Assembly: GCA_965235115.1 (NCBI GenBank)
Contig: OZ249436.1
Coordinates: 31,808,001-31,872,000, forward strand
DNA from: Laetmonice hystrix
Lineage: Eukaryota
Length of the DNA: 64,000 nt
Direction: 5' to 3'
Of the stretch, positions 34,158-62,717 are shown one piece after another (within the stretch, counting starts at the first letter, position 1; each line of letters starts with the position of its first letter). The notes below the pieces were generated by a model, which was not told the DNA's origin, did no database searches, and saw only the letters and a program-made list of their open reading frames with translations. The translations under genes were made by a program, and so were the position numbers.

Positions 34158-34340
34158 GGAACAAGTGTAGGAACCCTCGTAGCAACTATATTTTAACAAT
34201 ACATGTATTGTAGTGAACATTTTTAAACTGAAAAGTTATACGTGTACATGTATTGTTATAATTGATGCTAATATTTTGGTTTCATTATTTAAGTTCCAGG
34301 TCAAGGTTCAAACTTCAGAAGGAATGATCTCTCTCTGACC

Positions 34341-35204
34341 ATGATGCCTGATAAGGAACAAGTGAAGAATCTCCTTGTTGAAACAGTGACACTTCTATGT
34401 AAGAACAGCCTTGGATACAAAGACCACCTACGTGTTGAGGGGCTCTTAGGTGTGGCAATTGATGACAAGGATGTCTTTTTTCTTCATATCAGTGAAAACT
34501 TTCTAAATACACCTGCAGTTTCACAGACTTCAGATCCTTCAACAAGCACAGAAACAGTAAAAGACCAGAATATAGGCTCTGATTCAAATTATCAAGATCA
34601 TGAGGAGCATTTTATGCAAAAATCCAAAAATCCTGTTGACTCTGTTAAGTTAAAAGATGAACCCACAGATTCAGACGATGATTTGGTCATGATTCCAAGT
34701 CCTGAACTTCGCCCTCCAGACATGGTGGCCCAACGTGCAAGCAGAATAGCTGGCCAGCGTCGACCCCCCTCAAGCCCACGACCTAAGTCTCCAATACGTT
34801 CTGCAAGTTATGCTAACAGAAACGATATATCGGTGTACCGAAACAGCTTTGCTGAGACAACTGAGTTGGGGCATGATATGCAATATGTTATACAAAGTGA
34901 TTCCGATGAGCCACCAGAAAAACGTTTGGCTTTAGAAAGAAATGAAACTACCTTTGATGTGACAAGACAAGAGAGGTATTTGGACAGTGCGGCCAAAGAT
35001 ACAGAAAACAGCTCAGAAAGAGATGCTAGGTACCAACAATCTGGATGGACAGATGTACCACCAGGTGGCAGCACGACAATCAAGGTTGAGATGCCTGAAG
35101 GGAATTCACAGTATGAGAGTGAAGAACAAGGACTGACACATTCAACGCCCTATGTATGGACGGTCGCACCCACGAGTGAAGAGGGTGACCAACAGACCAG
35201 GGAG
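34341..35204 (+). CDS. Gene 2 shared exon: N-terminal domain (EQVKNLLVETVTLLCKNSL..VEGLLGVAIDDKDVFFLHISE) plus acidic/disordered linker
   Basis: ATG in acc-ATG context after acceptors at 34293/34299; 288 codons to GAG|gtaaga (phase 0); VKLKDEP and IKVE SUMO-like motifs. Confidence 0.85.
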
Positions 35205-35561
35205 GTAAGACTCAGGGCCCAGGCCCATCCTTTCCCTGACCAGTCCTTTACACACTTAGTTTACCATTCCAGGACTCCAGCTGGGTTCTTAAAGTTCACA
35301 CCATCTTATATAAAAATTATCACTTCAAGATCATATGCATAATATGCAATTTTTGCTTAGATTTTCTTGATAGAAATGATTAATATAGAAAGAAGGTGGA
35401 ATGTACTGTTCAATTACAGCAGGGATCCTGGATTGAATGTCACCTTTTTGTAAGTAGGGTCACATAAAACAAATTGCATTGTTATCATTCATGACTTACC
35501 TTTTACATCTTCAGTGGGGAGAATTTGTTTTTAAAAATAATTTGTTGGCGTTTTGGAATAG

Positions 35562-36990
35562 GATTTCCAAAGATATATTGCCCAATCCTGGAACAAAAAT
35601 ACGGTGAAAAAGACAAATTCGGTGACAAAGAAATTTGAGGCGTTCGTCACAAAGCAGGGATTTCAGAAGAAGCTGGTTGAATTTCTTCCAAAGGAACTCG
35701 ATGCTCTGATCGGTAAGTGGTATTAATTTTGAAACAAAATCATAATATTTATACTTGCTGCCATTTAAATTTCTATCGTCCTAAGGCCTACCTATTATAT
35801 TACAGTCCTCCCTCGCTATAGCGCCAGCCTTGGGACATAGGCGCCGTTGGCGGTATAGCGAGGGTGGCGTTATAGCGAGGTATATATATGCATGGACGCC
35901 AATCTTGAACCTGTACACCCAGCCAACCACCGTTCCCCGTATTTTTTAATGGGCATGGGCCTGGTCAATTTGGTCCAGCCCGAGTTACCACCCTGTGTAC
36001 ACCTTGTGCATTACAAAAGAAGTTTACTTCATCTCTGTAAGTCTAATAAAGGGAAATTGATCACAAAGTCCTTTAAAGTTTAGGTATTATTCGCTCTGAC
36101 CATATTCAGACATGATTGTGAACTGAACTGACCTCAAACGTGATGAAACCCTGCTTCCCGCCCACACTGGTGCCTCACCAAGTTCATTGCGTAACACGTA
36201 ATGACCTAATAATATGCACTGGCGCTACACGCTGGCGGTATAACGAGGGCGAATCTAATAGGTTTTAATATATTTGGACATGGAAGAGGCCTGGCGGATG
36301 GCGATAGCGAGAGTTGGCGGTACCTATGGGGAAAATACATTGGGATTTCTGTGCAAATACATTTTGGCGTTATATGCGAGGGTGGCGGTAAAACGGGGGG
36401 CGCTATAGCGAGGGAGGACTGTATATTATATTATTTTAAAATCATTTCCAGGTCAGTGGATCCTTAATGAAAGGAAACCAGACGGAGAGGAATATGAACC
36501 AGATACCCTAACTTCGAACCATAGGGCCTTGGATCGCTATTTAAAAGAAGAGGGTTTCGAGAAATGCGCATCAAGGGAGATTTTGGCGGCAAAAAGAAAA
36601 CATCTGAAAAGCTTGGGTCTTGGAAATAGAAAAAATAAGGCAGAAGCTCTGACTGTCGACGATGAAGAAAAGCTCTGGGAGAGTGGAAGTTTGGGGAGAA
36701 GTAATGCAGACATCCTACAGAGAACCGTATGGTTTCTTCTCACAAAGCAGTTAGGGTTTCGAGGATCCTCTGAGGCCCGGCAGCTATCTTACGGAGATCT
36801 AGAGGGAAAGCATGACATTGACGGTTCCGTATATTTTGAATGGACTGAAAACGCGTCAGAAATAAGACAGGGAGTCTCCAGTTCAGCCAGATCATTTAAC
36901 CCCAAACTTTTCCAAAATACCGACGATCCATCGAGATGCCCAGTCACCCTTGTAAAAGAGTTCTTAACCCACCGGCCAATGACAATGTAG
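35562..36990 (+). CDS. Gene 2 alternative 3' module: Crypton tyrosine-recombinase-derived (DUF3504/ZMYM/QRICH1-like), exons 35562-35712 and 36452-36990
   Basis: Phase 0 acceptor; NKNTVKKT..ELDALI|GQW..RKPDGEEYEPDTL..LDRYLKE..GLGNRKNKAEALT..EEKLWESG.LG..GFRG..EARQL..RCPV. TAG at 36988-90, with homology continuing to ~37095. Confidence 0.8.
35803..36421. mobile_element. Tc1/pogo-type MITE inside the intron of the Crypton module
   Basis: TA|CAGTCCTCCCTCGCTATAGCGCC ... GGCGCTATAGCGAGGGAGGACTG|TA. Confidence 0.9.
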
Positions 36991-38516
36991 CAGCCAGATA
37001 GTCCTTTTTTCCTCCAGGTGAATAGGGCCAATACAGTGCAGGATGCTATCTGGTATAAAGCCCGTCCAATTGGAGTGAATGCGTTGAACTCATTAAGCCC
37101 TAGTTGGTTTACAAGTTATGTGATGTTTATGATTTGTCCTTACTATAACAATGTATCACGAAAATAAACTGTGGCGTTTCACAAAAGAATATGTCTGCAT
37201 TGCGGTTGTTTGATATATAAATACCGGGGTACTTCTGAAGTTCGTCTGTCACTTTTTGCAATATAAATGTTCGATTTGTACTAGCGAAAATAGATTTCGA
37301 ATATTGTCAGCATTAATTTATTCTTGGAAAAATCGCGGATATATTTGTTTATGGAATTCTGGAACTATATTCATTGCGGCCTGTTACCAAGGGTGTGCTC
37401 GCTTCCTTCGCTTCAAGGAATTGCACGAGAATGCAAGGAATTAATTGAGAAGGCCAGAAATTTCAGTGTGACGGTCAGGAATTCCACTGCGAACTGAAGG
37501 AAAGGAATTTGACTGTGAAGCAATGTAATTGTCTGTGAAGACAAGGAATTTCACTATGAAGCGACGTAATTGTCTGTGAAGCCAAGGAATTTCACTGAGA
37601 AACAGACATTTTCTGTTAGTACAGCAGTTTCTACATCTGTCAGTACAGCAGTTTGTACATCTGGGCCACCGTAGTACAGTGCCACAGGCTTGCTACCTTC
37701 GTGTATCAATGGTATCTAAGTCAGTGCACCTCCTGGAAAACTTTCTTGTGGCAAGCAGATGCGAAAAACTGATACAACCCTATATGGCAAGCAGACGTGA
37801 AAAAACGATACAGTGGCCTCTAAAAAATAGGCTGAGCATATGTGAAAACTGATAGGCCTACAGTGGGCAACTGAGGTAGCAAGCCTTTCTAGGGCCCTCT
37901 GACAGCCAGATAAACGAACGCGGGTCAAAGGTGGATGAATGTGACGGTCGACAAACGTCGACAAACTCTAACATATTAGTAGCTGTATGACAAAAAGCAA
38001 TACATTGATATTGTCATGGAATTTCCTTGTATTTTCATGAAGCATAATTAAGCACAGAGGGAAGTCAAAATAGAACACAAAACCACCAGGGTACCAGTGA
38101 TACAAGTCTGTGAAGTTTGAAGAGGCCCTGTCGAGTCAAAAAGAGACTCCTCAAAAGAGAGCTACTCCTGCTTGTACTCATTGTTTCACACGATTTTTTT
38201 AAGAAAAAAAACTTGACGATTTCGAAAGATTTGAGCCTTCACCTTAGTTTAGCATGGAGAGAATGAAGTGATGACTTCCTTTATCATCACTTCCAGGAAT
38301 TTATTGCATTAGCATTTCTAAGTATATTTCCTAAATATTGACTTTTAAGATTATGGAATTGTGAGAGCGTTATAAGCTAAGTTTTAAGCGTATTTTAAGC
38401 TACCAAGTTTGACAGAGCTATATTAACATAAAACATGCTGTTGTCAAAGAAGTAGACATAGATTATAAAAAAAAATCTATTTTGTTTTACAATTCGTCTT
38501 TTTATTTTTTTTTTAG

Positions 38517-38574
38517 ATTATTCAGCATCAGACTGGAGGTATACCACATACGGATCATATCAGTCTCAAGACAG
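38517..38574 (+). CDS. Gene 2 linker exon (IIQHQTGGIPHTDHISLKT), phase 0 to 1
   Basis: Long poly-T tract + ag, donor ACAG|gtagtg; supplies the phase needed for exon 41060. Confidence 0.65.
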
Positions 38575-39342: not shown

Positions 39343-39702
39343 CGTTGGCTGTTGCAGCAGGTAATGCAGACAGTGTCTTTTTACAGTACAAGTACATGTT
39401 AGGGAATCTCCTTCCGCGTGGGGCAAGAACGTGAGAATGCACGAGATAATATGTGCTGACGTCACGGTCTATGGTTGTAAACACTGGGTCTATCGGCCAG
39501 CCGCCTGTAATTTGTGATAATTTGTGGTATCAGGTCAGTTCCTTGGTAAATAATTTCAAATGATATCGTTTGAGTCAGACAGAACCAGTTTGTGATTTTT
39601 GAAGGGGATGTAGAACTATTGGTTTAAAAAAGCAGTTTTTCGTTATGAAAATAACTTTAATAAGCAGTAAAAGCAAATTGCAATATACATGTATGCAATA
39701 TA

Positions 39703-40990
39703 CAGTGCGTATGAAAAAAAGGTAATCCAAATTCAGGGGGCTAATATGCCAAGATAATTATGTGTGACAATCCACATCTTGGTGTACCAATTAAGAGGAG
39801 CCCATCAGCTATCCATTGATACCTTTTGTGCATACCGGTAATACAGTAAACTCCGCCTAAGTCGAAACTTTTGGGACCAGCGTTTTTGTGTGGGCTTAGA
39901 GAAATGACGAGATGCACATAAGTCACCATTATGTCGATTGATGCATAAGATGACATATGGACTCCATGTGTATATCGATACACTGTAGCTATACACCGTC
40001 AGCACAAATTATGATAACACTGACGGCTATATAGGGCATCTCCAGTTAAATATACATGTTTACACGTAGCTGCAGTGTATTTCATGCTACTCAAAGAAAT
40101 TCCATCAACTCAAGAGAAACGAAAGAAAATCTACGGTAGGTAGCAGAACGTCACATTTGTGACGTTCGGAGGCTCATAATCTACCAGCGCCATGATTAGA
40201 ACACGGTGAGAAACAGATACCCGCTTGAAAGGTTCATTTTCCAGTACTACTGACCGGGCGGCCAGGCTTACGTTATAACTCGGGATTCTCCGTGTCGACT
40301 TAGAGGTAGAAATTTATATGTATAAACGTTACTTGGGGCCAGATTCGATGCGTCGGTTTAGGCCAAGTGGCGACTTACAAGTATCGGCTTTGACGATGTA
40401 TTCTACATAGAATTAACATTAGACCAAATCGGGACTTTGGGAATTGCGTCGACTTAGGTGATATGTCGGCTGTCACACATTACCGAGTATTCATTTATTG
40501 AAAATGACCAGTTCGAATTGTTTTTTCCCAAAGTTTGAAGAACCGGCGCAAGTCGGTCTGAAATGGAAGCAACACTTATTGACTGCCAAGTTGATTATGT
40601 AAGATTTGGACGGTGGGTTGGTTATCATTGGTTACATCATCCTGTCCTTCAAGGTGGGTATTTAAGAGGGGCCAGGTTACATGATATCCTTTGTGAATGA
40701 AGTCCAGTCATTCCTAAGAATATCTTGTTTGTTCTTCATTTTAGGTTGGAAAACGTCAGTTGCATTACTGACTTGCACCGCTTCCTCAGACTTGGAGAAA
40801 GGCGAAATGAACAGGGCATTTATACTAAATATCTACTTGGTCATGTGCGACGGCAGATACGCACGAAAGGTATTAATGGAAGGCCGAGGTGCTCCTCTTA
40901 ATTGGTGGCCGACATGTAACTTGTCACAGTAAATGACCTTCACATATTAACCCCTTGAATCCGGATTACCTTTTTTTTGGATACGCACTG
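39703..40990. mobile_element. Tc1-like non-autonomous element containing a nested pogo-like fragment (39844 to ~40468)
   Basis: TA|CAGTGCGTAT..AAAAAAAGGTAATCC..ATTCA.GGGG and its reverse complement |TA; the inner element starts TA|CAGTAAACTCCGCCTAAGTCG and lacks its right tip. Confidence 0.8.
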
Positions 40991-41059
40991 TATAAATACT
41001 GTATCCCAATCAATTCTACCATTCTTCTTTATTTCCAAGTTTCAAATATCAAATTTCAG

Positions 41060-42012
41060 CGTCCAGTGCCAACCATTGTAATAGAAGTCTAAACGGAGCC
41101 CCGCAAATATCTCACAACCATCTACGCTCACTGCTCAGCATGCCAATCTCAACCGCCGCAGAGACACCCACCTGTACTAATGCACCACTAGTACAGGTAG
41201 ACATCCCATCATTCGACTTGGAGCCCGCTGGACCAGGGATTCGTATTAGTAGGCCGACACAAGCAGAAACCCCAGACCTCTGTTGTGTTCTGCCTAATGA
41301 AACAGAGCCAAAGATTTTCACCAGTGTGCAAAAGGCTCACACCCAATTGTGCTCACTGCTTTTGACAGGAAGTTTACCAGATCAAGGCACACCTGCGACC
41401 AGCACATCACCTACACACAGAGACCTCCCTCATGTACAGTCAGGAAGTTCAGGGTCACCTGCGGGAACATCAACCAATACACAGAACGCAGAAAGGGACC
41501 TCGCTCATATAATACCTCACCAGTCAGGCACACCCACAGAGAGAGCAGCAGTAAGGACAGACTCCTCTGACTTGTCACCAAGTGGGTCAGGAACAGCCAA
41601 TAGCACCCAAGCAGCAACCCCAGTCCCATGGTTAAATCCACAAGTAACAGTGTCGGATACAATTAGCAGTTTACAAACAAAGTCCCACCTCCGCGCATTG
41701 CTTTCCACGATGACCACACCAAGCCAAGGGACACCTACCAGCCCAGAAGCATTAGGGAAGAATACTCCTGTGCTCCCACATTCTTCAGGGACACCCAAGA
41801 GGAACCGATCAATTCACATAGATCTCACTGGGTCACCGCCGCAGAGCCCAGAGACACCACCCGAAATATCCAACAGTAAACCAGCAGAAGATATTACCAC
41901 CCAAAGTTTATCACCACGGCTTGGCGGGGGTTATTGTCCAATATGTTGTACAGACGTTGGCTCTGAAACCGTGCTTAAAATGCACATGATCTTTCGGCAC
42001 GGCAAGCATTGA
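41060..42012 (+). CDS. Gene 2 alternative terminal exon A: S/T/P-rich region plus one C2H2 finger
   Basis: tttcag| phase 1, in frame with ORF 41140-42012; CPICCTDVGSETVLKMHMIFRH. Confidence 0.75.
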
Positions 42013-44461: not shown

Positions 44462-44917
44462 GCAGAAAGGAAGGAGGGTGGGCCCTGCAACAATCGTAGA
44501 AGGAACCACTTCAAAAGTAGATGGGTTGAGGAGACATCTAAGACAGCGAGCCTGGCCACGGCCCCAACGCGCAAGCCCTCAGTGCCAGGATGGCCGCCCG
44601 TAACCCTGCATCAGGACGTGGGCAAGTCCGTGTTTCACGGCATTCTTGGGACGGACTTTTACAGTACTTGTCCAGTTTGTCAGAAGATGTGCAACACGCC
44701 GTCCCAACTCAGGGTGCACATGAGGGTGCACACTGGGGAGAAGCCCTACAGGTGCACAGTTTGCGGAGCCTCCTTTTCGCAGTCTGGACACCTTCACCAG
44801 CATAAGAGGAGTCACTCGGCAGACCGGCCGTACAAATGTGATATCTGTGGTGCAGCATTTAATTTGTCACATAACCTCAACAGACACCAGAAGGTACACA
44901 TCAAAGAGACTGACTGA
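44462..44917 (+). CDS. Gene 2 alternative terminal exon B: three C2H2 fingers
   Basis: ttacag| phase 0, open into CPVC..H TGEKPY CTVC..H SADRPY CDIC..H; ATTAAA at 44947. Confidence 0.85.
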   Translation, partial: AERKEGGPCNNRRRNHFKSRWVEETSKTASLATAPTRKPSVPGWPPVTLHQDVGKSVFHGILGTDFYSTCPVCQKMCNTPSQLRVHMRVHTGEKPYRCTVCGASFSQSGHLHQHKRSHSADRPYKCDICGAAFNLSHNLNRHQKVHIKETD

Positions 44918-46883
44918 CTAACGGGGCCTAGCGCCTGGGGTATTGCATTAAATGTAAATGTAACTTCCTTAAAGACAACTTTATAAATATCGTTTGGAAT
45001 CTTCACTCCGCCCTTATACGTGTCGCGGACATTCGTTTGTAGCAGGCATCTAATTTAACTGTTCCTTAATGCTTTGGGTTATGAAAGACTGATTTGCCGA
45101 AATCGGGAACCCCATCCAACTGATTACACCACGTCACCTTGAAGAATATGACAAAAAAGAAAGCACCATGTTCTTTCATGACTTGCAAAAAGGTGATAGA
45201 ACCGAAGGCATATGAATATTATGCCGTTCCACCTTGATTATGCCACCAGTTAACTGGTCAGACGCAGCCGGAATGTACAAGATTCGTAGAGTTTAAGGTG
45301 AAAAGGTACCAGGTGAAATGGCGGGCACTAAAAAGCCAGGGGTCTGCGCTATGTGACAGCAGATATCAAGGTACATGTACTTTGAAGGTAGGGTCATTTG
45401 TTGATTAAGAAATTAATTTCTTTTTTTTGGCGTTATTTGTTGATTAGAAAATTAGTTTATTATTTTTTTGCATGGACGTCAGAAAATACAGAGTTAGAAT
45501 TATAGTATGGTGTATAGTCCAGAGAGAAACGTTTAGTTTGACTCGATACCTTGACCATCTCTGGACTTGGCGACTGGGTTTGAAAACGGATTGGGTGGAC
45601 TAACAGACTGGGTTGGAAGATGTTCAGTCTGATCCTTATTTTCATATCACTGGGTGAGGTATCTTCTATTGTCGGTATATAATAATTGACGACATATTAC
45701 GATATTGTTGCTCAAAATATACCGTTTTTATGCCATTATTGAAAACTTTGATATTGGACCTTCATGGGACACGTTGAGATTGTTGTCTACCGACCTGGAG
45801 GCGGAGGAAAAGCAAGTGCTTAATTAGCAAGGTCGAATTAGAAGATCCCGCGGGGGGGGGGGGGGGGAAATGTCCACGGGACAGCCGGCAGGGGGCTCAG
45901 TTGCGGAGGGGGGGGGGGGGGTAGGAGTAGAAGAACCAGAACGATCCCCATTCCCATAAGATTAAAAATATTTTTTAATTACTACTATTTGCAATTTTAT
46001 CTGGAACAATATACATTTTTATTGTATGCTTCATAACACTGACCCCCAGAATCTTACCGTTTACCGTCTTGACACGTGGCAATACAAGGGACTAGACTGG
46101 CCATTGCATGGCCATCTGTGAAGGCTTTAAAAATGAGGGTTGCAGGGGCGATCATTGAATAGCCCTCTGAAGTTTCTTCAAAAGATGAACATTTTGAAAA
46201 GCCAAGAAAACGTTGTAGCTATATTGTGGCTAGGTATGGTTTGTCCAGTATACGGGGTCAGATCAGGAAATAGCTCAACCATTCCAAGAACCTTTTTCGC
46301 CTGACCATGAGGTCCAAATCCCCGCATGTGGCTATCTTTTGGGTGAAGCGATGTATTGGGTAGTATTTTGGGTAATTACTATTGAAAAACATAACGTCGT
46401 GAAGGTGATCATTCGAGTTTGAGGGACAGCTTTGTCTCCAAAATGTAGAAAAGAATCGATACCAAATCAACAGTCGAACTAGACCTACTGGTACTTTTAA
46501 TAAGAGACTTGCAGATATACGAATGTGTTTGTGATGATTTCATTTACCGAATGTTACGTGGATAACTTAACAAGTCCGCAAAGATTAGATGCTCAATCGC
46601 TTATTGTTTTCTGAAATACGTTCATGGAAATATTTTATTATAAAGAAAGCGGGGTGATATTTGGTTTCACACACATAATCAACTTGGCAATTTTTTAAAA
46701 TACTATAATGATCACTTCCTGTACAGGGGGAGGAGCAGTTATGGCATTTGTATATAGGCAGGATGTAATTTTATTAGCAGGACGGGAAGATTTAATTGAA
46801 ATGATACAAAAATTAGTATTCCCAATGATACATGAATGGACTGGCCCCGCATCCTGAGTGACAGTCTGTCCTTGCTCTTCCAG

Positions 46884-47204
46884 AAGTGTCCAGGAACCAG
46901 TGATGATCAGGCAGTAATGCGGCATTCCTATGAGCCTATCCCAAGTGTACCAGCTGAGTTGTTTGGGTACAACTCCAGTTCAAACCCTAGGGCAAATAGG
47001 TTTCAGCCGGGCAAACGGTCGCAGGGCAAACCGCACGTATGTGAGACCTGTGGAAGTGACTTTACAACTGTGGGTAACCTGAGGCAGCACCAGAGGATAC
47101 ATGCCGTAGTGAAACCATACCAGTGTTCTGACTGTGGGAAGAGCTTTGTCAGGAGGAACCATCTAACCCAGCATTGGCTAAGGCGGCATTCTACTAGGCG
47201 GTGA
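46884..47204 (+). CDS. Gene 2 alternative terminal exon C: two C2H2 fingers
   Basis: cttgctcttccag| phase 0; CETC..HQRIH..KPYQ CSDC..HWLRRH; AATAAA at 47599. Confidence 0.85.
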   Translation, partial: KCPGTSDDQAVMRHSYEPIPSVPAELFGYNSSSNPRANRFQPGKRSQGKPHVCETCGSDFTTVGNLRQHQRIHAVVKPYQCSDCGKSFVRRNHLTQHWLRRHSTRR

Positions 47205-48066
47205 CGTCATTGGTTAGTGGATGCCAAGTGAAAACGAATTGATTCGTTGAATGCACTCTTGTTTTTCGACAGCAATAGGCTATGAATACTTTTGATACTG
47301 CTAAGGCATTTTTTTAAGACAGATTAGGATTTTTTTCCATATCTGTAAGGAGAACATGCTAACATTTGTTGTTGCTGTTTGCAAGTAGAAACAATTAACT
47401 CCACAGATACCGATTTCACGTCCCGAAGTTGTTTGAAAGGCGAAGGGGAAACCCTTCCATCACTAAAGAAGCAAGCATTGGACTTTTCTGAGTTTCTTTT
47501 TTTATAAAAACCATAGGTTGCGTTATTCCTGGAAAAAATCCATTCAGTCCTACACATGTGAATGTCTTTAAACTCCATATAATTATGTCCACACGACGAA
47601 TAAATTTTGTAAAAGAAAATCTTTGTTTTTCTGGGGTTGGTGGATGGACACTAATATTAGTATGGTAAAAAGTTATTTGCGGTTTTGCATCATATGAAAG
47701 CTTAAAAACAAAAGTTGGAGAACTTAGATTAGGGTAGTAACGAGCCCAATTTCATTATTTGAACCAGAGGTTCATGGACACCATTGGCGATTATAAGTTG
47801 GCACTGGCATAGATTTGGATTACGAATCAGTAGGCCTATCGGTCCATGATGGCATCGATGATTCATTTGGAATATGAAATAGATAACAGGACCTCTCCCG
47901 AAAGGTTTGGGGGAGCAACCAAAAATTGACAACATATTTCAATTAGGCCTACCAATAGTACCTTACTGTGGTACGGTAGTTCAAATTCTCACTGATAAAT
48001 TATTAGTTATTTTAGTTTATTAATTATTTCGTGCATTATTTTATGGATTTGCTGTTGGTCTTGCAG

Positions 48067-48417
48067 GTATCGAATCAGCCCTCCAGAGGCCGGGAGACAG
48101 ATGTGCCTGCCGCAAACCATGGTGTGAAGGACGGACGACATCGGTGTACATTCTGCGGCCGGTTCTTCCGAAACACCTCCCGTCTCACCATTCACCTGCG
48201 CTCACACACAGGCGAAAAGCCGTATTCCTGCGAGACGTGTGGAGCAAGGTTCTCGCAGTCGTCACACCTGGGCCAGCACGTAGTCATTCACACCGGCTTA
48301 AAACCGTACAGGTGTTTTCTGTGTCAAAAAAGTTTCTATCGGAGAAGCTATCTTATCAGACATTGTACTCTGCAACATTCCACGGCAACCCTGCCCCCCA
48401 TGGCGGGGTCCGAGTAA
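48067..48417 (+). CDS. Gene 2 alternative terminal exon D: three C2H2 fingers
   Basis: tcttgcag| phase 0; CTFC..H TGEKPY CETC..H TGLKPY CFLC..H; AATAAA at 48999. Confidence 0.85.
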   Translation, partial: VSNQPSRGRETDVPAANHGVKDGRHRCTFCGRFFRNTSRLTIHLRSHTGEKPYSCETCGARFSQSSHLGQHVVIHTGLKPYRCFLCQKSFYRRSYLIRHCTLQHSTATLPPMAGSE

Positions 48418-49497
48418 TTCATCATGGTCCAGGGAGTATGTCACGGGCTGTATGTACTTAAGACCTGCTGGTACCGTAGACGTGTGATGGTGTAAATTTG
48501 GATGTACAGATCTGCAGGACACTTCTATTAAAGGGGCCTGGTCAATTAAAAGCCACAACATCGACCCCCTCTCATATTAAACAACCTAGATTTACCTGCA
48601 ATCTCGTAATAATTCGAAAGCAAAACAACTGTGCATGTAGTTGTAATATGGAGGCTCCACGCAGCCACACCGATTTGCCATGGCGGTGGTTTGTAACTTG
48701 TAATTTTCTTACATTTGTTGATCGCCATATTGAAATAATTATGTTGGTATTAAAGGATGAAAGGTACGTTTCATATTTGGGGGAATTGACGGAGTCCCTT
48801 TCATTTTGTCATGACCAGAAAAAAAAAATAACCCCGATACACTGGCTATAATTGAAGCCATGAGGCGTTGTGTCATAGACATAGACCTATACCATACTAG
48901 GTTATAGGATATAGTTCTTTCTATGTCTATGGTTTAATGCAGTACAATTTAATAAGGTATAGTCAATAGTTTTTTATTAATAGACTTATTAATATAACAA
49001 TAAAGCTGTACAATTTCCCTATGTACCATGTCCGTGTTTTTAGTCTTCGGATTTCAACGGCGACGGGAAACCAAGCCCAATAAGGCAAGAGATCGATTTG
49101 CAATAGTTGGGGGACCAACAGGATGTGAGTTTGGGGCGCGGCATCCGTTTTGTTGTTGTTTTTGTTTTTCTAAAACCGAACAAGATTTCGTTTAAGGAAA
49201 GAAGTATCGAAGTAGGCCTATTTAAGCATGAGGGAATAGCGTATATAGCCTAGGCATACTTGGAGGGCCCCTCCCGCCTCCCATTGGCCTTTGATCCACA
49301 CTGGGCCTACCCTAACCGCTAATGAGACTCTGCCCCAAGTTAGCGCCAGGACCTGCCAAATCTTTTTGCTTACCAAATGGGAGAAACTCCCACTTGAGGT
49401 AATCCCAGTCGGGAGATAATTCGCGACGAAACGGTACCAGTGATCAGACGTCTTGTAAATACAAGTATAGGCTATTGATGTATAGCATGCAGAGATA

Positions 49498-49752
49498 CAC
49501 TCTGAAGAAATAAGGGTTCTTAGAGGTTCTTTGTAGAACTTTGGACGTCCACCTGGAACCAAAGGGTTCTATACGAAGTAAAAGGGCTCCTTGTAGAAAA
49601 GTTAGGTTTCACATGGAACCAAAAGGTTCTGTACGGGGGAGAAGGGTTCCTTGTAGGAAAATTAGGTTCCAAGTGGAACCAAAGGGTTCTATACGGAATA
49701 AAAGGGTTCCTGTTATGAAGGTAAAGTTCCACATTAAACCTATAGGTTCTTT
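49498..49752 (+). mobile_element. End of a CACT-terminated (EnSpm/CACTA-like) element with ~60-bp subterminal repeats
   Basis: CACTCTGAAGAAATAAGGGTTCT followed by 3-4 units containing GGAACCAAAGGGTTCT; related fragment at ~58755-58890. Confidence 0.55.
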
Positions 49753-51240
49753 AGGCCCCTATACTCAGAAGAAGGTTGTTCGATCAATATTAATTTAAGG
49801 ATCTTGACACTCTATGACCTCTGTTTGAAAAGGTGAGGCACACGTTTGAACAGATGCAATTTGTCATTTATTATTACAGTGATAAATATATTGAAAAAAA
49901 TATGTTTAGCATACACCACCTGCCTGTAAGGATTAGGAACCTTTATAAACCGCTTAGCCGTGGTATATCCGTCGCACTTCATTATCCATACGCAGTCGAT
50001 GGACTACACAACGTTGGGCCCTGAACGAGTATAATGTGACGCTCTCTGACGTCAGCAGAGGGATTATTTTGCCATCTATACCTCCCTAGGAAGGGTTATT
50101 AATCGAAAACGTGACCTATCGATGACGTCTGCATAAATTAAAAGTTCACCAACTCCAATTCAGTCTCCGCCGACGTTTACCAAAGCCTGAACATGCTTCT
50201 GGAAAGGAAATGTCATGAAAATGATCTACGCCCTGGAACTGAAGATTGGCTGTATCTTGCCAACATTTACGTTAGATTGTGTTTGTTTACATGTCGAAGC
50301 GAGCCTTGTCGCACCTGCCAGCTACTGTCAGCTCACAAGGTGGGCGGGGCATAAAGACAGTTCCACCAATAAGATTAGAGGTTTGAAAATTTGCATATGG
50401 GCCGAAAGCATTATGGGATGCCGATGGATGACACAACGGAATGGTCACGGGAAGGCGGAACTGGCATGCACCAACAAACGCCAAAAAATGGGAGTAAATT
50501 ATGTAGTGTCAAGTGCTTTATTTAATATAAAATTTGGTTTAAAAAGGCATCAGACCCTGGCCCTTGGTGGTCACCCTCGGGTCTGGCGTCAGATAACCAT
50601 TCCCTCGGGGCTTCGAGGCCAAACAGTACAGGGAGGCCAAACAGTACAGTGAGTGAGGAGTCCCTACATGGTACTGGTTGGCCTAGTACCCAAGCAAAGA
50701 GTACAGTGAGGTAGTAGAAATGGAAGGTATAGGCGAGGGGCATCTACTGTTAACATTTCGAGAGTATACTGAAATGGGAAGTATACATTTCACAGCCATT
50801 TATCTGTAGCGAACGTACGTGACGGAAATGTTTTACAGTAATTTTGAATACTTTCAAGAAGCACACGATATTTATACAAAGCCAACACATGGAGGCAATC
50901 ATATTCCATGGTTTTGATATAGAAATATTTCGATGCCCCTTAAACAGTGAAGACTGAAGTGCTCTCTTTTTTATGAGCGAACGTACGTGATGAATACTAG
51001 GCAAAAATTCCAGTAGCGAATTACAATACTAGATATGCATACAAACATTGCAATAAAGACGTAATATTATATATCCCTACAGTACTGGCTACCGTTGTAT
51101 GCAAGCAGACAGTACAGGGAGGCCAAACAATACAGTGAGGGCAAACAGTACAGTGTGGCCAAACACTCTCATTTCGGAAGATGTGTGTAGGGGGGAGGGT
51201 CCATTGTCCTGCTCGACCACCAAAGCTCCTTTTTTAGGGG

Positions 51241-59556: not shown

Positions 59557-60197
59557 TAGCCTCTACTCTATAGTCTAATGTGAAATGTAACGTGGAACTC
59601 GGTATTAAATTAATTCGGCAAGCTTGCTTTGTGGATGATCGTGTATAGCCTATAGGCCTATTTAAAAAAAAACGCCCCTGATTTAGGCCTAGATTTTATC
59701 TGTATAGGCTAGTCTAAACTATAGCAGGCTCGACACCAACTAAGCGAGAGCGGGTCATCAGCTGATCAGGCAAGCAAGGTCGTTGAAGGTGGGCGGCCTA
59801 CGACTACTACGAGTACGACTGCGTCGAGTGGTCTGAAATTGTGATTAGCGAGCTGTATCGGTTCCATGGGCCCTAGACCTAATCATGCTACTCGTTCACA
59901 CTAAATAAATTTACGCTTAGATTCGGAATATGACTGCATGATACTGGTCAGTCATGTAGATTTCCCACCCGATACTCGCGATGGGTTTCTTTTAGGCCGC
60001 GTGTCGGCCTATCATAGCCTATGTTGCAAGTCGGTCTCATTAGCACAGTCTCGGTTAGTAAACTGCAACATTGTTACAGTGTGTGTTTGGGGGGACGAAA
60101 CCCGTTACGATCAACGCGGCATTTTGTCGTCCGCGCATCTGTGACACAGACACATGGATGGCGTAGACCTACGTCTTTGTGGATATTATACATAACA

Positions 60198-62717
60198 ATG
60201 GGAGACTCGATGAAAAGGTTCCCGGAGAAGTTGTGGGACGCCGTAAACGACACAGATAAAGGCGACTTGATCTCTTGGAATGCAGACGGAACTGCTATAA
60301 TCGTAGATGAGCATCGTTTCGAAGCAGAGGTGATGCATGTTTATCCAGGGTTGGTGCAGATACCTTCTTTCCCGAACTTTCGCCGCCAGTTACGCGAGTA
60401 CAGCTTCGGATGGAAATCGGAAAAAAGCCCAGTGACATCTCAATTTTGTTTTTATCATGAAAACTTCAGACGTGGCTACGTGGAACTGTTGTCACACGTG
60501 TTAACCAGACGTAAAGCAACCAAAGCCGCAAGAGAATTGGATGGTTCAGACGATGGGCATCAACAACAACGTCATGTGGATAAATCTACGTCGTCGTTTC
60601 TGAAAAACAAGTCAAACTACTCAAAGGATGGCGGAAGTTGTCGGGCAAACGTTCGCGTGATGAGAGGGAAGATCGCTAAGTTTGGCAAGGGACGAAACAG
60701 TCGGCGAAATCGGGTGGAAACTAGGAAGTTACTGACTGAAATCATTACTAACAGATACATGATGTCTGAGGCACACGACGAGGGTCCCGATGGTTGTAGT
60801 GGTCACTACCATCCCGATTTTCTCTACCACCTCGGCCTGGGTCTGCATCACGGCCGGCCGCACGTTCACGGACCGGCGCCGGGCGGGGAGGCGGTCCTCG
60901 TGCCAACGTCGACGGAGGATTTTGCCAGGTTGTATCCCGACGCTTTTTGCAGCGCCCATGGCCATGTCACTGCCGGTGGCGATTTGTCATGTGCCTTCTC
61001 TGCTCCAACTTTTGTCAATAGCCAAGGACAAGGTGTTCATGAAAGTCCAAGATACGCCAATCTGCCGCCAATCGGTGCCCTGCAGTACCAGTTTACGGGT
61101 TGCGGTCACCATGGGCAGCCTCACGCCCAGCCTGTGCCCATGATTCCCAGCAGTAACAGCCACATGCAGGTGCAGCCCCATGGAAACTACAAGTACACGG
61201 CAGCAGTCCATGGCAGTCAGCAAGGTTCCCAGTATCCACGTGGTCCTTCCACGTCACCAGTCTCTCACAGTTCACCAGGGATGACGGGTGGCAGCAGCAG
61301 CACCACCAGTGTATCCTCACCACTGCCCAGCCAGATTTCAACCACCCCTCTGGCTGGACACCTCCCACATTTCCCATCACACCCTCTCATGGCATGGTGT
61401 TCCCCCTCCACATCCTCTGACGGCTCTGGGCCATGTATTTCTGGATGTTTGTGTCATCTCTTGAGCCAAACAGAGCAGATCTTTAGCCCATCGCAGATGC
61501 ACCTGCCAGGTGGAAATTCAGATTTACCTAGCCCAAATACCCCTACTTTGAGGGCTGTGTTCCAAGACCCAGCTTTTGGATTAAGTGATGGTCAAGTAGC
61601 AGCAATGCATGAATTTCAATCCACCGAGTACCATGCAGGTCACTATATAGATCAACCCTTTGTGGAAGTTTCAAATGGTGTGGGTAATATTGTCCCAATC
61701 ACAGGTAACCACTTTCAGGAGTATTCAACAACAGTAAGCACCGCAATGCCTTGTCATATAACTGATGCAGTTGACATGCCAATGGCACTGCAAGTGGCCC
61801 AGGAAGTCAGTGTCTCTTCTAATGATTCAGAAGGGTTGGAGACAAGACGACTTTCTAACAGTCAATCCGGATCCAGGGGGGACAACCAGAATATAGATTT
61901 TGAGCAGAATTTTTATCTCACAACAGAGCAGAATATCAATATGATGGATGCTGAGACTGGACATTTGATACCAATGAGGAGGCAAGTTGAAGAACATTGT
62001 TCTGAAAGTTCATTAAACCTGCATTCCAGTAATGCTGCAATAACAGCAAAAGGTACATCAGCTTCTTCTGTAGAGGGTACAGGCCAGGCATGCCTCCATG
62101 ATGCGGGATCTCCAACCAGCTCTACTGACAGCACCCTTTGCATACCGTTAATAGATTCAGAACTACCATCAACACCATTCAAGCCAGATGAAGACGATGT
62201 TTCACCTGAAAAACAAAGTCCTGTTAAAATTGTGAACCGCCCAGTTGTTGTAATGCCAGTGAACCAAGACCTGGATGGATCATACTTTACAGATGCAGAC
62301 CAGTTTTCTGAAGGTGTGTCAATTACGAAATTTGGGCTTGATGATAGTGGTTCTGAATTTAGTGACAGTGAATACGAACTAAAGGAATGTGACCTGACGG
62401 GGGAAGAGTATGATGATGCCGCAGACATCATGAGTGTGATCAGTGCAGAAACAGATAGTGTCGCACCAGCAGGCGAACCTAAGCCAAATTGTGTAACAGA
62501 GAGCAACCAGCCAGCTGTTGCTGTTGAAGCAGAAGGCACTGCTACAGAAACTGATAAATATGAATGTGACAGTAAGCTGAAGGTTAAAGAGGAAAAGACC
62601 AAGGAACCTGCTGTGGATTTACCTGCAAATGGTCAAAGTGGCATCAAATCAGTGAATTCTGTTTTAGATACAAAATATCAGTATAAATGTACAGGAGAGG
62701 AGAGCAAGACCTCATAA
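60198..62717 (+). CDS. Intronless protein with divergent HSF-type DNA-binding domain (HSF5/HSFY-like) and a long disordered His/Ser-rich then acidic tail
   Basis: RFPEKLWDAVN..ISWNADGTAIIV..FEAEVM..NFRRQLREYSF..FYHENFRRG..LLSHV. The ORF is open from 60021; ATG 60198 (aca-ATG-g) just before the domain is preferred. Confidence 0.85.
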   Translation: MGDSMKRFPEKLWDAVNDTDKGDLISWNADGTAIIVDEHRFEAEVMHVYPGLVQIPSFPNFRRQLREYSFGWKSEKSPVTSQFCFYHENFRRGYVELLSHVLTRRKATKAARELDGSDDGHQQQRHVDKSTSSFLKNKSNYSKDGGSCRANVRVMRGKIAKFGKGRNSRRNRVETRKLLTEIITNRYMMSEAHDEGPDGCSGHYHPDFLYHLGLGLHHGRPHVHGPAPGGEAVLVPTSTEDFARLYPDAFCSAHGHVTAGGDLSCAFSAPTFVNSQGQGVHESPRYANLPPIGALQYQFTGCGHHGQPHAQPVPMIPSSNSHMQVQPHGNYKYTAAVHGSQQGSQYPRGPSTSPVSHSSPGMTGGSSSTTSVSSPLPSQISTTPLAGHLPHFPSHPLMAWCSPSTSSDGSGPCISGCLCHLLSQTEQIFSPSQMHLPGGNSDLPSPNTPTLRAVFQDPAFGLSDGQVAAMHEFQSTEYHAGHYIDQPFVEVSNGVGNIVPITGNHFQEYSTTVSTAMPCHITDAVDMPMALQVAQEVSVSSNDSEGLETRRLSNSQSGSRGDNQNIDFEQNFYLTTEQNINMMDAETGHLIPMRRQVEEHCSESSLNLHSSNAAITAKGTSASSVEGTGQACLHDAGSPTSSTDSTLCIPLIDSELPSTPFKPDEDDVSPEKQSPVKIVNRPVVVMPVNQDLDGSYFTDADQFSEGVSITKFGLDDSGSEFSDSEYELKECDLTGEEYDDAADIMSVISAETDSVAPAGEPKPNCVTESNQPAVAVEAEGTATETDKYECDSKLKVKEEKTKEPAVDLPANGQSGIKSVNSVLDTKYQYKCTGEESKTS

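Follow-up and report, generated by a model that had tools for sequence, protein, structure and literature searches.

A possible capture of a Crypton recombinase domain as an alternative 3′ module of a zinc-finger gene in Laetmonice hystrix

We analysed a window of 64,000 nucleotides from the genome of Laetmonice hystrix (contig OZ249436.1 of assembly GCA_965235115.1; G000:C1:31808001-31872000 in our searches of the 627-Mb assembly of 35 contigs). Behind the shared head exon of a predicted multi-isoform zinc-finger gene lie two exons derived from a Crypton, a transposon encoding a tyrosine recombinase (YR). We tentatively read this pair, hereafter module A, as a real capture that was once under selection and is now truncated, and we give this reading a little less than an even chance. 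A paralogous gene carries a second Crypton-derived exon, paralog B, whose reading frame is intact and which is a better domestication candidate than the originally flagged module A.

The shared coding exon of the host gene (34300-35204; the exons and splice sites of this gene are on the + strand) ends in a phase-0 donor, GAG/GTAAG, at 35204. Crypton exon 1 (35562-35712, 151 nucleotides (nt), phase 0 in and phase 1 out) encodes the start of the N-terminal recombinase domain and matches residues 54-106 of the Crypton protein P0001 with an E value of 2e-4. It leaves through a phase-1 donor, G/GTAAGT, at 35712, and a GT-AG intron (35713-36451) leads to the acceptor TTTCCAG/G of exon 2 at 36452. 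Aligned with intact Crypton proteins, the two exons join in frame with zero gap and zero overlap; an earlier note on this DNA had described two exons with canonical splice sites in the correct phase, and this description was borne out. Exon 2 (36452-37168) carries the homology to the Pfam family DUF3504 (36652-37095; E 1.9e-15, model positions 3-119 of 162), with the GFRG motif at 36754-36765, confirming the assignment to a Crypton N-terminal domain and the first part of the YR domain. The GFRG arginine alone is retained from the catalytic tetrad R-H-R-Y. The HxxR, H/W and Tyr region, which the note had called absent, was indeed not found anywhere in the window, where tblastn with five intact Crypton proteins gave zero significant matches. 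An AATAAA signal (37163-37168) overlaps the second in-frame stop, TAA at 37165-37167, and exon 2 therefore looks like a terminal exon. The transposon exons share strand and phase with the host head exon, and the transposon domain sits on exons separate from the host domain. Among the 21 AG sites in 35230-35636, 35562 opens the whole Crypton frame (229 codons), and two sites within exon 1 are also in frame.

The position of the intron is missing from all five external Crypton proteins and from the fossil copies L003, L013 and L014. Inside it lies a miniature inverted-repeat transposable element (MITE; 35801-36423, 623 nt, no strand assigned) with perfect 25-nt terminal inverted repeats and a best copy that is 97% identical; without the MITE, the intron measures 116 nt. 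All 64 non-self DNA matches of the Crypton region land on this element (40 of 346 candidates scored). At the DNA level exon 1 matched only itself, and exon 2 itself plus one 30-nt stretch beyond the exon. The copy-number check suggested earlier thus returned single-copy exons and not the many near-identical, unspliced copies of a dispersed element. Single copy proves little, however, since Cryptons are low-copy in most hosts, as stated by Kojima and Jurka (2011, PMC3212892).

The proteins nearest to module A are five full-length, tetrad-bearing Cryptons (42-46% identity) and one fragment, and P0001 sits in an 18-member cluster whose proteins vary in length, which fits a multi-copy element. The genome contains 34 DUF3504 matches. 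Multi-exon matches to QRICH1 plus DUF3504 occur at G000:C6:30308741-30310896 (+), a locus that is probably the WOC/ZMYM orthologue. A phmmer comparison of module A with QRICH1 in the PDB yielded zero matches at E≤1. The identity to intact Cryptons, together with the separate QRICH1 locus, indicates that module A is Crypton-derived and not a piece of WOC.

Four runs (X1-X4) of one sample were aligned as contigs, and X4 was taken as RNA from its spliced contig alone: record 29 joins 45002-45368, 46882-47211 and 48066-48597 at GT-AG sites. Record 27 of the same run covers 36456-37055 with 0 differences, including an in-frame TAG at 36988, so this TAG is transcribed. Record 25 follows the shared exon as far as the donor at 35204, beyond which it continues for 101 more letters of unlisted placement. 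The printed depth of 4.15 for the bin 35188-35734 matches 19.6 x (15+101)/547 = 4.16, and five other bins can be reproduced in the same way, indicating that the 101 letters were placed in bin 35188-35734. By this depth arithmetic only, splicing very likely connects the shared exon with an acceptor inside 35188-35734. The arithmetic places no X4 contig from where record 25 ends to 36456, a gap that was not used as evidence.

These features suggest the following course of events. A CryptonA transposon would have landed in an isoform-switching zinc-finger gene, in the first intron 3′ of its shared head exon, and been captured as an alternative, polyadenylated 3′ module, spliced from 35204 to 35562 and then from 35712 to 36452. 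The catalytic end of the recombinase may have been lost at the same boundary as in human QRICH1 (776 residues), in which residues 516-758 align to the Crypton profile. The QRICH1 alignment ends at a WY..P.G/S...L motif, the point at which the homology of module A breaks off (37095) and strong conservation in paralog B also ends. This shared end point suggests that the lost catalytic end is the usual shape of a domesticated DUF3504 domain, not decay per se. The non-catalytic module was probably kept for a time, acting on DNA or as a cofactor with zinc-finger partners. The sequenced allele, with its nonsense codon, would now encode a protein of ~517 amino acids (aa) whose domain is incomplete and which would represent a weakened or decaying isoform, and the paralogous gene would have independently taken up another Crypton that is still intact.

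The head exon of this paralogous gene lies at C1:20797294, and its DUF3504 exon follows 3 kb downstream on the same strand (G000:C1:20800414-20801449, +; L033:7414-8449). Paralog B opens with a phase-0 acceptor, runs for 345 codons without a stop or frameshift, and matches both Pfam QRICH1 and DUF3504 above the cut-off. Its catalytic residues are disrupted: the first catalytic Arg is replaced by Tyr, a 13-residue deletion covers HSW, and a later His has become Pro (TGH to TGP). Like module A it is single copy, and the two are 25-27% identical. In a 19-row tree without ZMYM proteins, for which 12 of the 19 genomic loci offered supplied a segment of at least 170 aa (the other 7 were left out), B falls within a 10-row clade without A (support 100/99, branch length 1.24), and both A and B group with Crypton copies of the same genome or with intact Cryptons. 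Crypton-bearing loci thus number two among the 40 head-exon loci, the chance of the second being ~0.004, and none of the 38 other head-exon candidates has a Crypton exon within 10 kb downstream. The gene family has probably captured Cryptons twice, from different clades. In a separate observation, L002 (G000:C20:13852978-13853943, −) holds a DUF3504 open reading frame (ORF) of 322 aa with zero frameshifts or stops. Its HxxR and H motifs are altered, its start coincides with a likely acceptor, and other ORFs lie upstream on the same strand; it may represent a third Crypton that became exonic, in a gene unrelated to this family.

Several observations weigh against a capture that was under selection, beginning with the lesions of module A. 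The in-frame TAG (36988-36990) lies inside DUF3504, with homology resuming beyond it (model 124-156, E 0.011), and an 8-residue in-frame deletion is found near 36560. Coding sequence up to the TAG spans about three quarters of DUF3504; the stop costs the module its last ~35 homologous residues, corresponding to roughly 40 residues at the end of the QRICH1 alignment, and the conserved ERxTKT motif is lost as well. The earlier note had let the module run to 37095, past this TAG, and had missed the deletion, the MITE and a competing acceptor (35513-35514, exon start 35515). Its proposal of an independent captured module is supported by the Crypton origin, the single copy, the probable separateness from WOC/ZMYM, the position and phase of an alternative 3′ module and the RNA-like contig on exon 2, but an intact module, as it was put, is not supported. 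Furthermore, none of the joints listed is the 35204-35562 or the 35712-36452 junction. The depth arithmetic fits acceptors 35562 and 35515 equally, and record 27 opens with a single unaligned letter (36455); an acceptor at 36457, out of frame with exon 1 and giving a 342-aa product, would fit this as well. All RNA-like support comes from one run of one sample. The selection statistics are likewise modest: Poisson probabilities for module A were 0.086 for frameshifts and 0.24 for all lesions, against copies that differ in age, and 70-78% of conserved columns are retained, compared with 73-98% in left-out relatives. A fusion of the head with DUF3504 appeared in none of 236 head-domain proteins, most of which are single-exon gene calls and make a weak test, and no Crypton was seen at any of 67 metagenome loci, a test weakened by short contigs. 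Finally, the structural model of paralog B, whose top Foldseek match was QRICH1 (9hjt_H) in PDB 9HJT (E 2.5e-8), followed by Cre structures, is of low confidence (predicted local distance difference test score 63, template-modelling score 0.34, root-mean-square deviation 15.4 Å).

The stop, the deletion and the 3′ truncation would also suit an intronic Crypton fossil with opportunistic splicing, that is, an old, low-copy insertion transcribed with the host gene and spliced either non-productively (to 35515 or 36457) or neutrally, with no selection on the protein. The acceptor for exon start 35515 has the stronger pyrimidine tract (14 of 17 positions, versus 9 of 17 for 35562) and leads out of frame to a stop after 30 codons. 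The low copy number of Cryptons in most hosts and the weak statistics also suit a fossil. A BLOSUM test gave P 0.0017 for A and P 0.068 for B; it was set aside because conservative changes may predate the capture, and they could indeed stem from transposon life. We nevertheless consider a mere fossil unlikely. A frameshift-aware alignment found 0 frameshifts and 1 stop in the 266 codons of module A, whereas eight other genomic copies of the same group carry 16 frameshifts and 2 stops in 1733 codons, with 1-4 frameshifts in each of the six frameshifted copies. The intron is exactly in frame, has strong sites and occupies a position lacking in relatives, the QRICH1-like boundary is followed by a poly(A) signal, and a second independent locus exists within the same family. 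Intron gain does not by itself show domestication, according to PMC13465315. For paralog B, nine copies of its clade carry 26 lesions in 2937 codons, so that the probability of none in B is 0.06. The contrast is weak for A and B alike, and the tests on A (P 0.086-0.24) are suggestive but not significant.

The TAG might also be less damaging than it looks. It is followed by CAGCCA (36988-36996 in all), an exact match to the CARYYA readthrough consensus, a context shared by only 2 of the 838 TAGs on the + strand of the window, TAG 36988 included. In a functional capture with a leaky stop, readthrough of UAG-CAGCCA would yield a protein of ~576 aa covering DUF3504 model positions 3-156 beside the short form. 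Homology remains high past the TAG, and CARYYA gave ~15% readthrough in a reporter, with UGA and UAG similar (PMC4132726). However, the proline at this place is common to the relatives L002 and P0003 and any Gln codon is CAR, so that coding for these residues can by itself produce the motif; it follows none of the four zinc-finger exon stops (0/4); and a recent nonsense change would explain the downstream homology equally well. We therefore regard a functional leaky stop as distinctly improbable. Removal of the TAG by a micro-intron or RNA editing was ruled out, as record 27 spans it without gap or difference. An assembly error was also ruled out: the X1, X2 and X4 contigs agree with 0 differences, and X3 has 2 differences at unlisted places, so that the site may be heterozygous. 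A stop in a terminal exon need not trigger nonsense-mediated mRNA decay, and this would apply to TAG 36988.

Alternatively, the exons may matter as RNA. The first acceptor or acceptors and a poly(A) site after the shared exon could divert transcripts from the zinc-finger exons and so tune isoform output. The Crypton exons are the first module past the shared donor, AATAAA lies at 37163, and record 25 leaves the donor towards the Crypton region. Moreover, the zinc-finger exons are chained via donors in their 3′ untranslated regions (UTRs; record 29), so the first acceptor used would set the protein. Such a role would leave unexplained both the 266 frameshift-free codons of module A and the intact exon of paralog B, whose gene has an earlier candidate exon; we assign this role a low probability. 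Selection on a captured protein module, later truncated in A, remains the reading that we prefer.

If the protein was the target, QRICH1 offers a guide to its function. The title of PDB entry 9HJT describes Zincore (SEPHS1:QRICH1) binding ZFP91 on DNA, and that title and passages citing Bianchi et al. 2025 present the QRICH1-SEPHS1 complex as a zinc-finger coregulator. In both host genes the remaining tails consist of C2H2 fingers, which suggests a cofactor or DNA-clamping role for an intact module; the DNA-binding module originally proposed is equally conjectural. In a more elaborate scheme, which we rate as highly unlikely, the annelid-type isoform-switch family would twice have incorporated a Zincore-like cofactor into its genes: an isoform of head plus DUF3504 would join the head plus zinc-finger isoforms via the shared head and stabilise them on DNA, its full-length level at the module A locus being set by programmed UAG-CARYYA readthrough.

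The shared exon consists of a ~55-aa head domain (34341-34508) and a low-complexity region, and zero Pfam families matched the head domain or shared exon at E≤0.1. The head domain gave 39 matches across the genome and 765 among 8000 scored candidate proteins (the named match shown belongs to the annelid Ridgeia piscesae); among representatives clustered at 50% identity it gave 1846. P0126 is 44% identical to the shared exon over 310 columns and, on this similarity, looks like its orthologue. A model of the 55 aa shows a helix-strand-strand arrangement; a wide fold search was uninformative (best Z 3.9, zero at Z≥5 among 48161 chains), and the ESM Atlas returned zero usable matches. A single-sequence search for long head-domain proteins found none among 15 candidates, and a dimer prediction (score 0.01) gave no answer and was not used as evidence. 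Two head-domain copies per chain occur in proteins of other organisms (P0007-P0011, P0160, P0161).

Downstream of module A, a 58-nt exon (38517-38574, phase 0 to 1; prediction only) would feed a predicted alternative phase-1 exon with one C2H2-like finger (41060-42012). Three phase-0 exons follow: 44462-45370 with three C2H2 fingers (stop 44915-44917, donor 45370 within the 3′ UTR), 46884-47212 with two (stop 47202-47204, donor 47212), and 48067-48597 with three (stop 48415-48417), whose 3′ end is set only by the end of the RNA-like contig. Their phase-0 acceptors at 44462, 46884 and 48067 fit a design in which several alternative DNA-binding exons of the same phase follow one common exon, the joins from the shared exon being predicted. 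In the RNA-like contig these exons are chained serially (44915-48597), with donors 45370 and 47212 past each stop; later zinc-finger exons therefore sit in the UTR of earlier ones and are not mutually exclusive terminal exons. Elsewhere in the window, an inverted-repeat element (39699-40994; arms 39699-39834 and 40858-40994, 77-91% complementary) ends 65 nt before the predicted 41060 acceptor, short tandem arrays occupy 37414-37660 and 49548-49753 (41-nt and 24-nt units; 60-nt units), and an intronless ORF of 899 codons (60018-62717, +) encodes an HSF-type DNA-binding domain (E 3.9e-14).

Other paralogs carry different tails. Non-zinc-finger ORFs of ~230 aa lie downstream of the head exon in L141, L144, L146, L147 and L149-L151, and two that were scanned (L144) had no Pfam match. 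At L159:2129-3181 (G000:C1 near 67.9755 Mb, +), 2 kb 3′ of another head exon, an ORF encodes a piggyBac-type zinc finger (Pfam zf-Tnp_2, E 1.1e-7), a possible second kind of transposon-derived tail.

Alternative-exon capture of Cryptons has precedents in print, namely KIAA1958 a/b, KCTD1b and an ATF7IP intron, and Kojima and Jurka (PMC3212892) count four Crypton domestications in animals, all of them very old. As described there, KIAA1958 a/b likewise carry Crypton-derived, catalytically dead DUF3504 domains on alternative exons, the two being 26% identical to each other; in that case, however, both domains belong to one gene of jawed vertebrates and are intronless and highly conserved, whereas here the captures lie in two paralogous genes with C2H2 tails, and A has an intron and a stop. 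The same paper reports, within an intron of the host transcription regulator ATF7IP, a YR whose splicing into that regulator was predicted and which is intact or frameshifted depending on the species. The zebra finch ORF was intact, its catalytic activity was left open and it had no transcript support at the time, whereas the catalytic end is gone here and RNA-like contigs cover exon 2. Spliced fusions of a host regulatory domain with a transposon domain on its own exon, also recurrent, are described by Cosby et al. (bioRxiv 10.1101/2020.05.07.082677), although those concern tetrapods, transposases and often KRAB, and the main text of that paper does not use the word Crypton. Compared with domesticated genes of the KIAA1958/KCTD1b type, A shares the loss of Tyr, the second Arg and His; an uninterrupted frame holds in B but not in A. 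With active CryptonA elements A shares a related YR/DUF3504 protein, but neither a complete tetrad nor dispersed DNA copies. In WOC/ZMYM2-4/QRICH1 the DUF3504 domain ends at the same motif and the gene context here suggests a comparable C2H2 link, but those domains are constitutive and ancient and belong to a separate gene, and no MYM fingers are present here. In Drosophila lola, numerous alternative 3′ exons encoding DNA-binding domains share the 5′ exon(s). The same layout is described for mod(mdg4) in PMC13490949, and both differ from the present gene in having a BTB head, in place of a ~55-aa head without a Pfam match.

We did not find this host family with Crypton exons, the lineage or the recurrence in the literature, where the DUF3504 accession lists supplementing PMC3212892 may bear on novelty. 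Should module A prove to be only a fossil, the value of the finding would shift to paralog B. If the capture reading is true, these loci would add two further independent captures, B intact and A damaged, that end close to the QRICH1 boundary and lie in C2H2-tailed genes, and would show recruitment of DUF3504 to be repeatable and lineage-specific. A and B would then be a natural comparison for the question of why a dead recombinase persists, and would provide a test of whether zinc-finger affinity is inherent to Crypton YRs.

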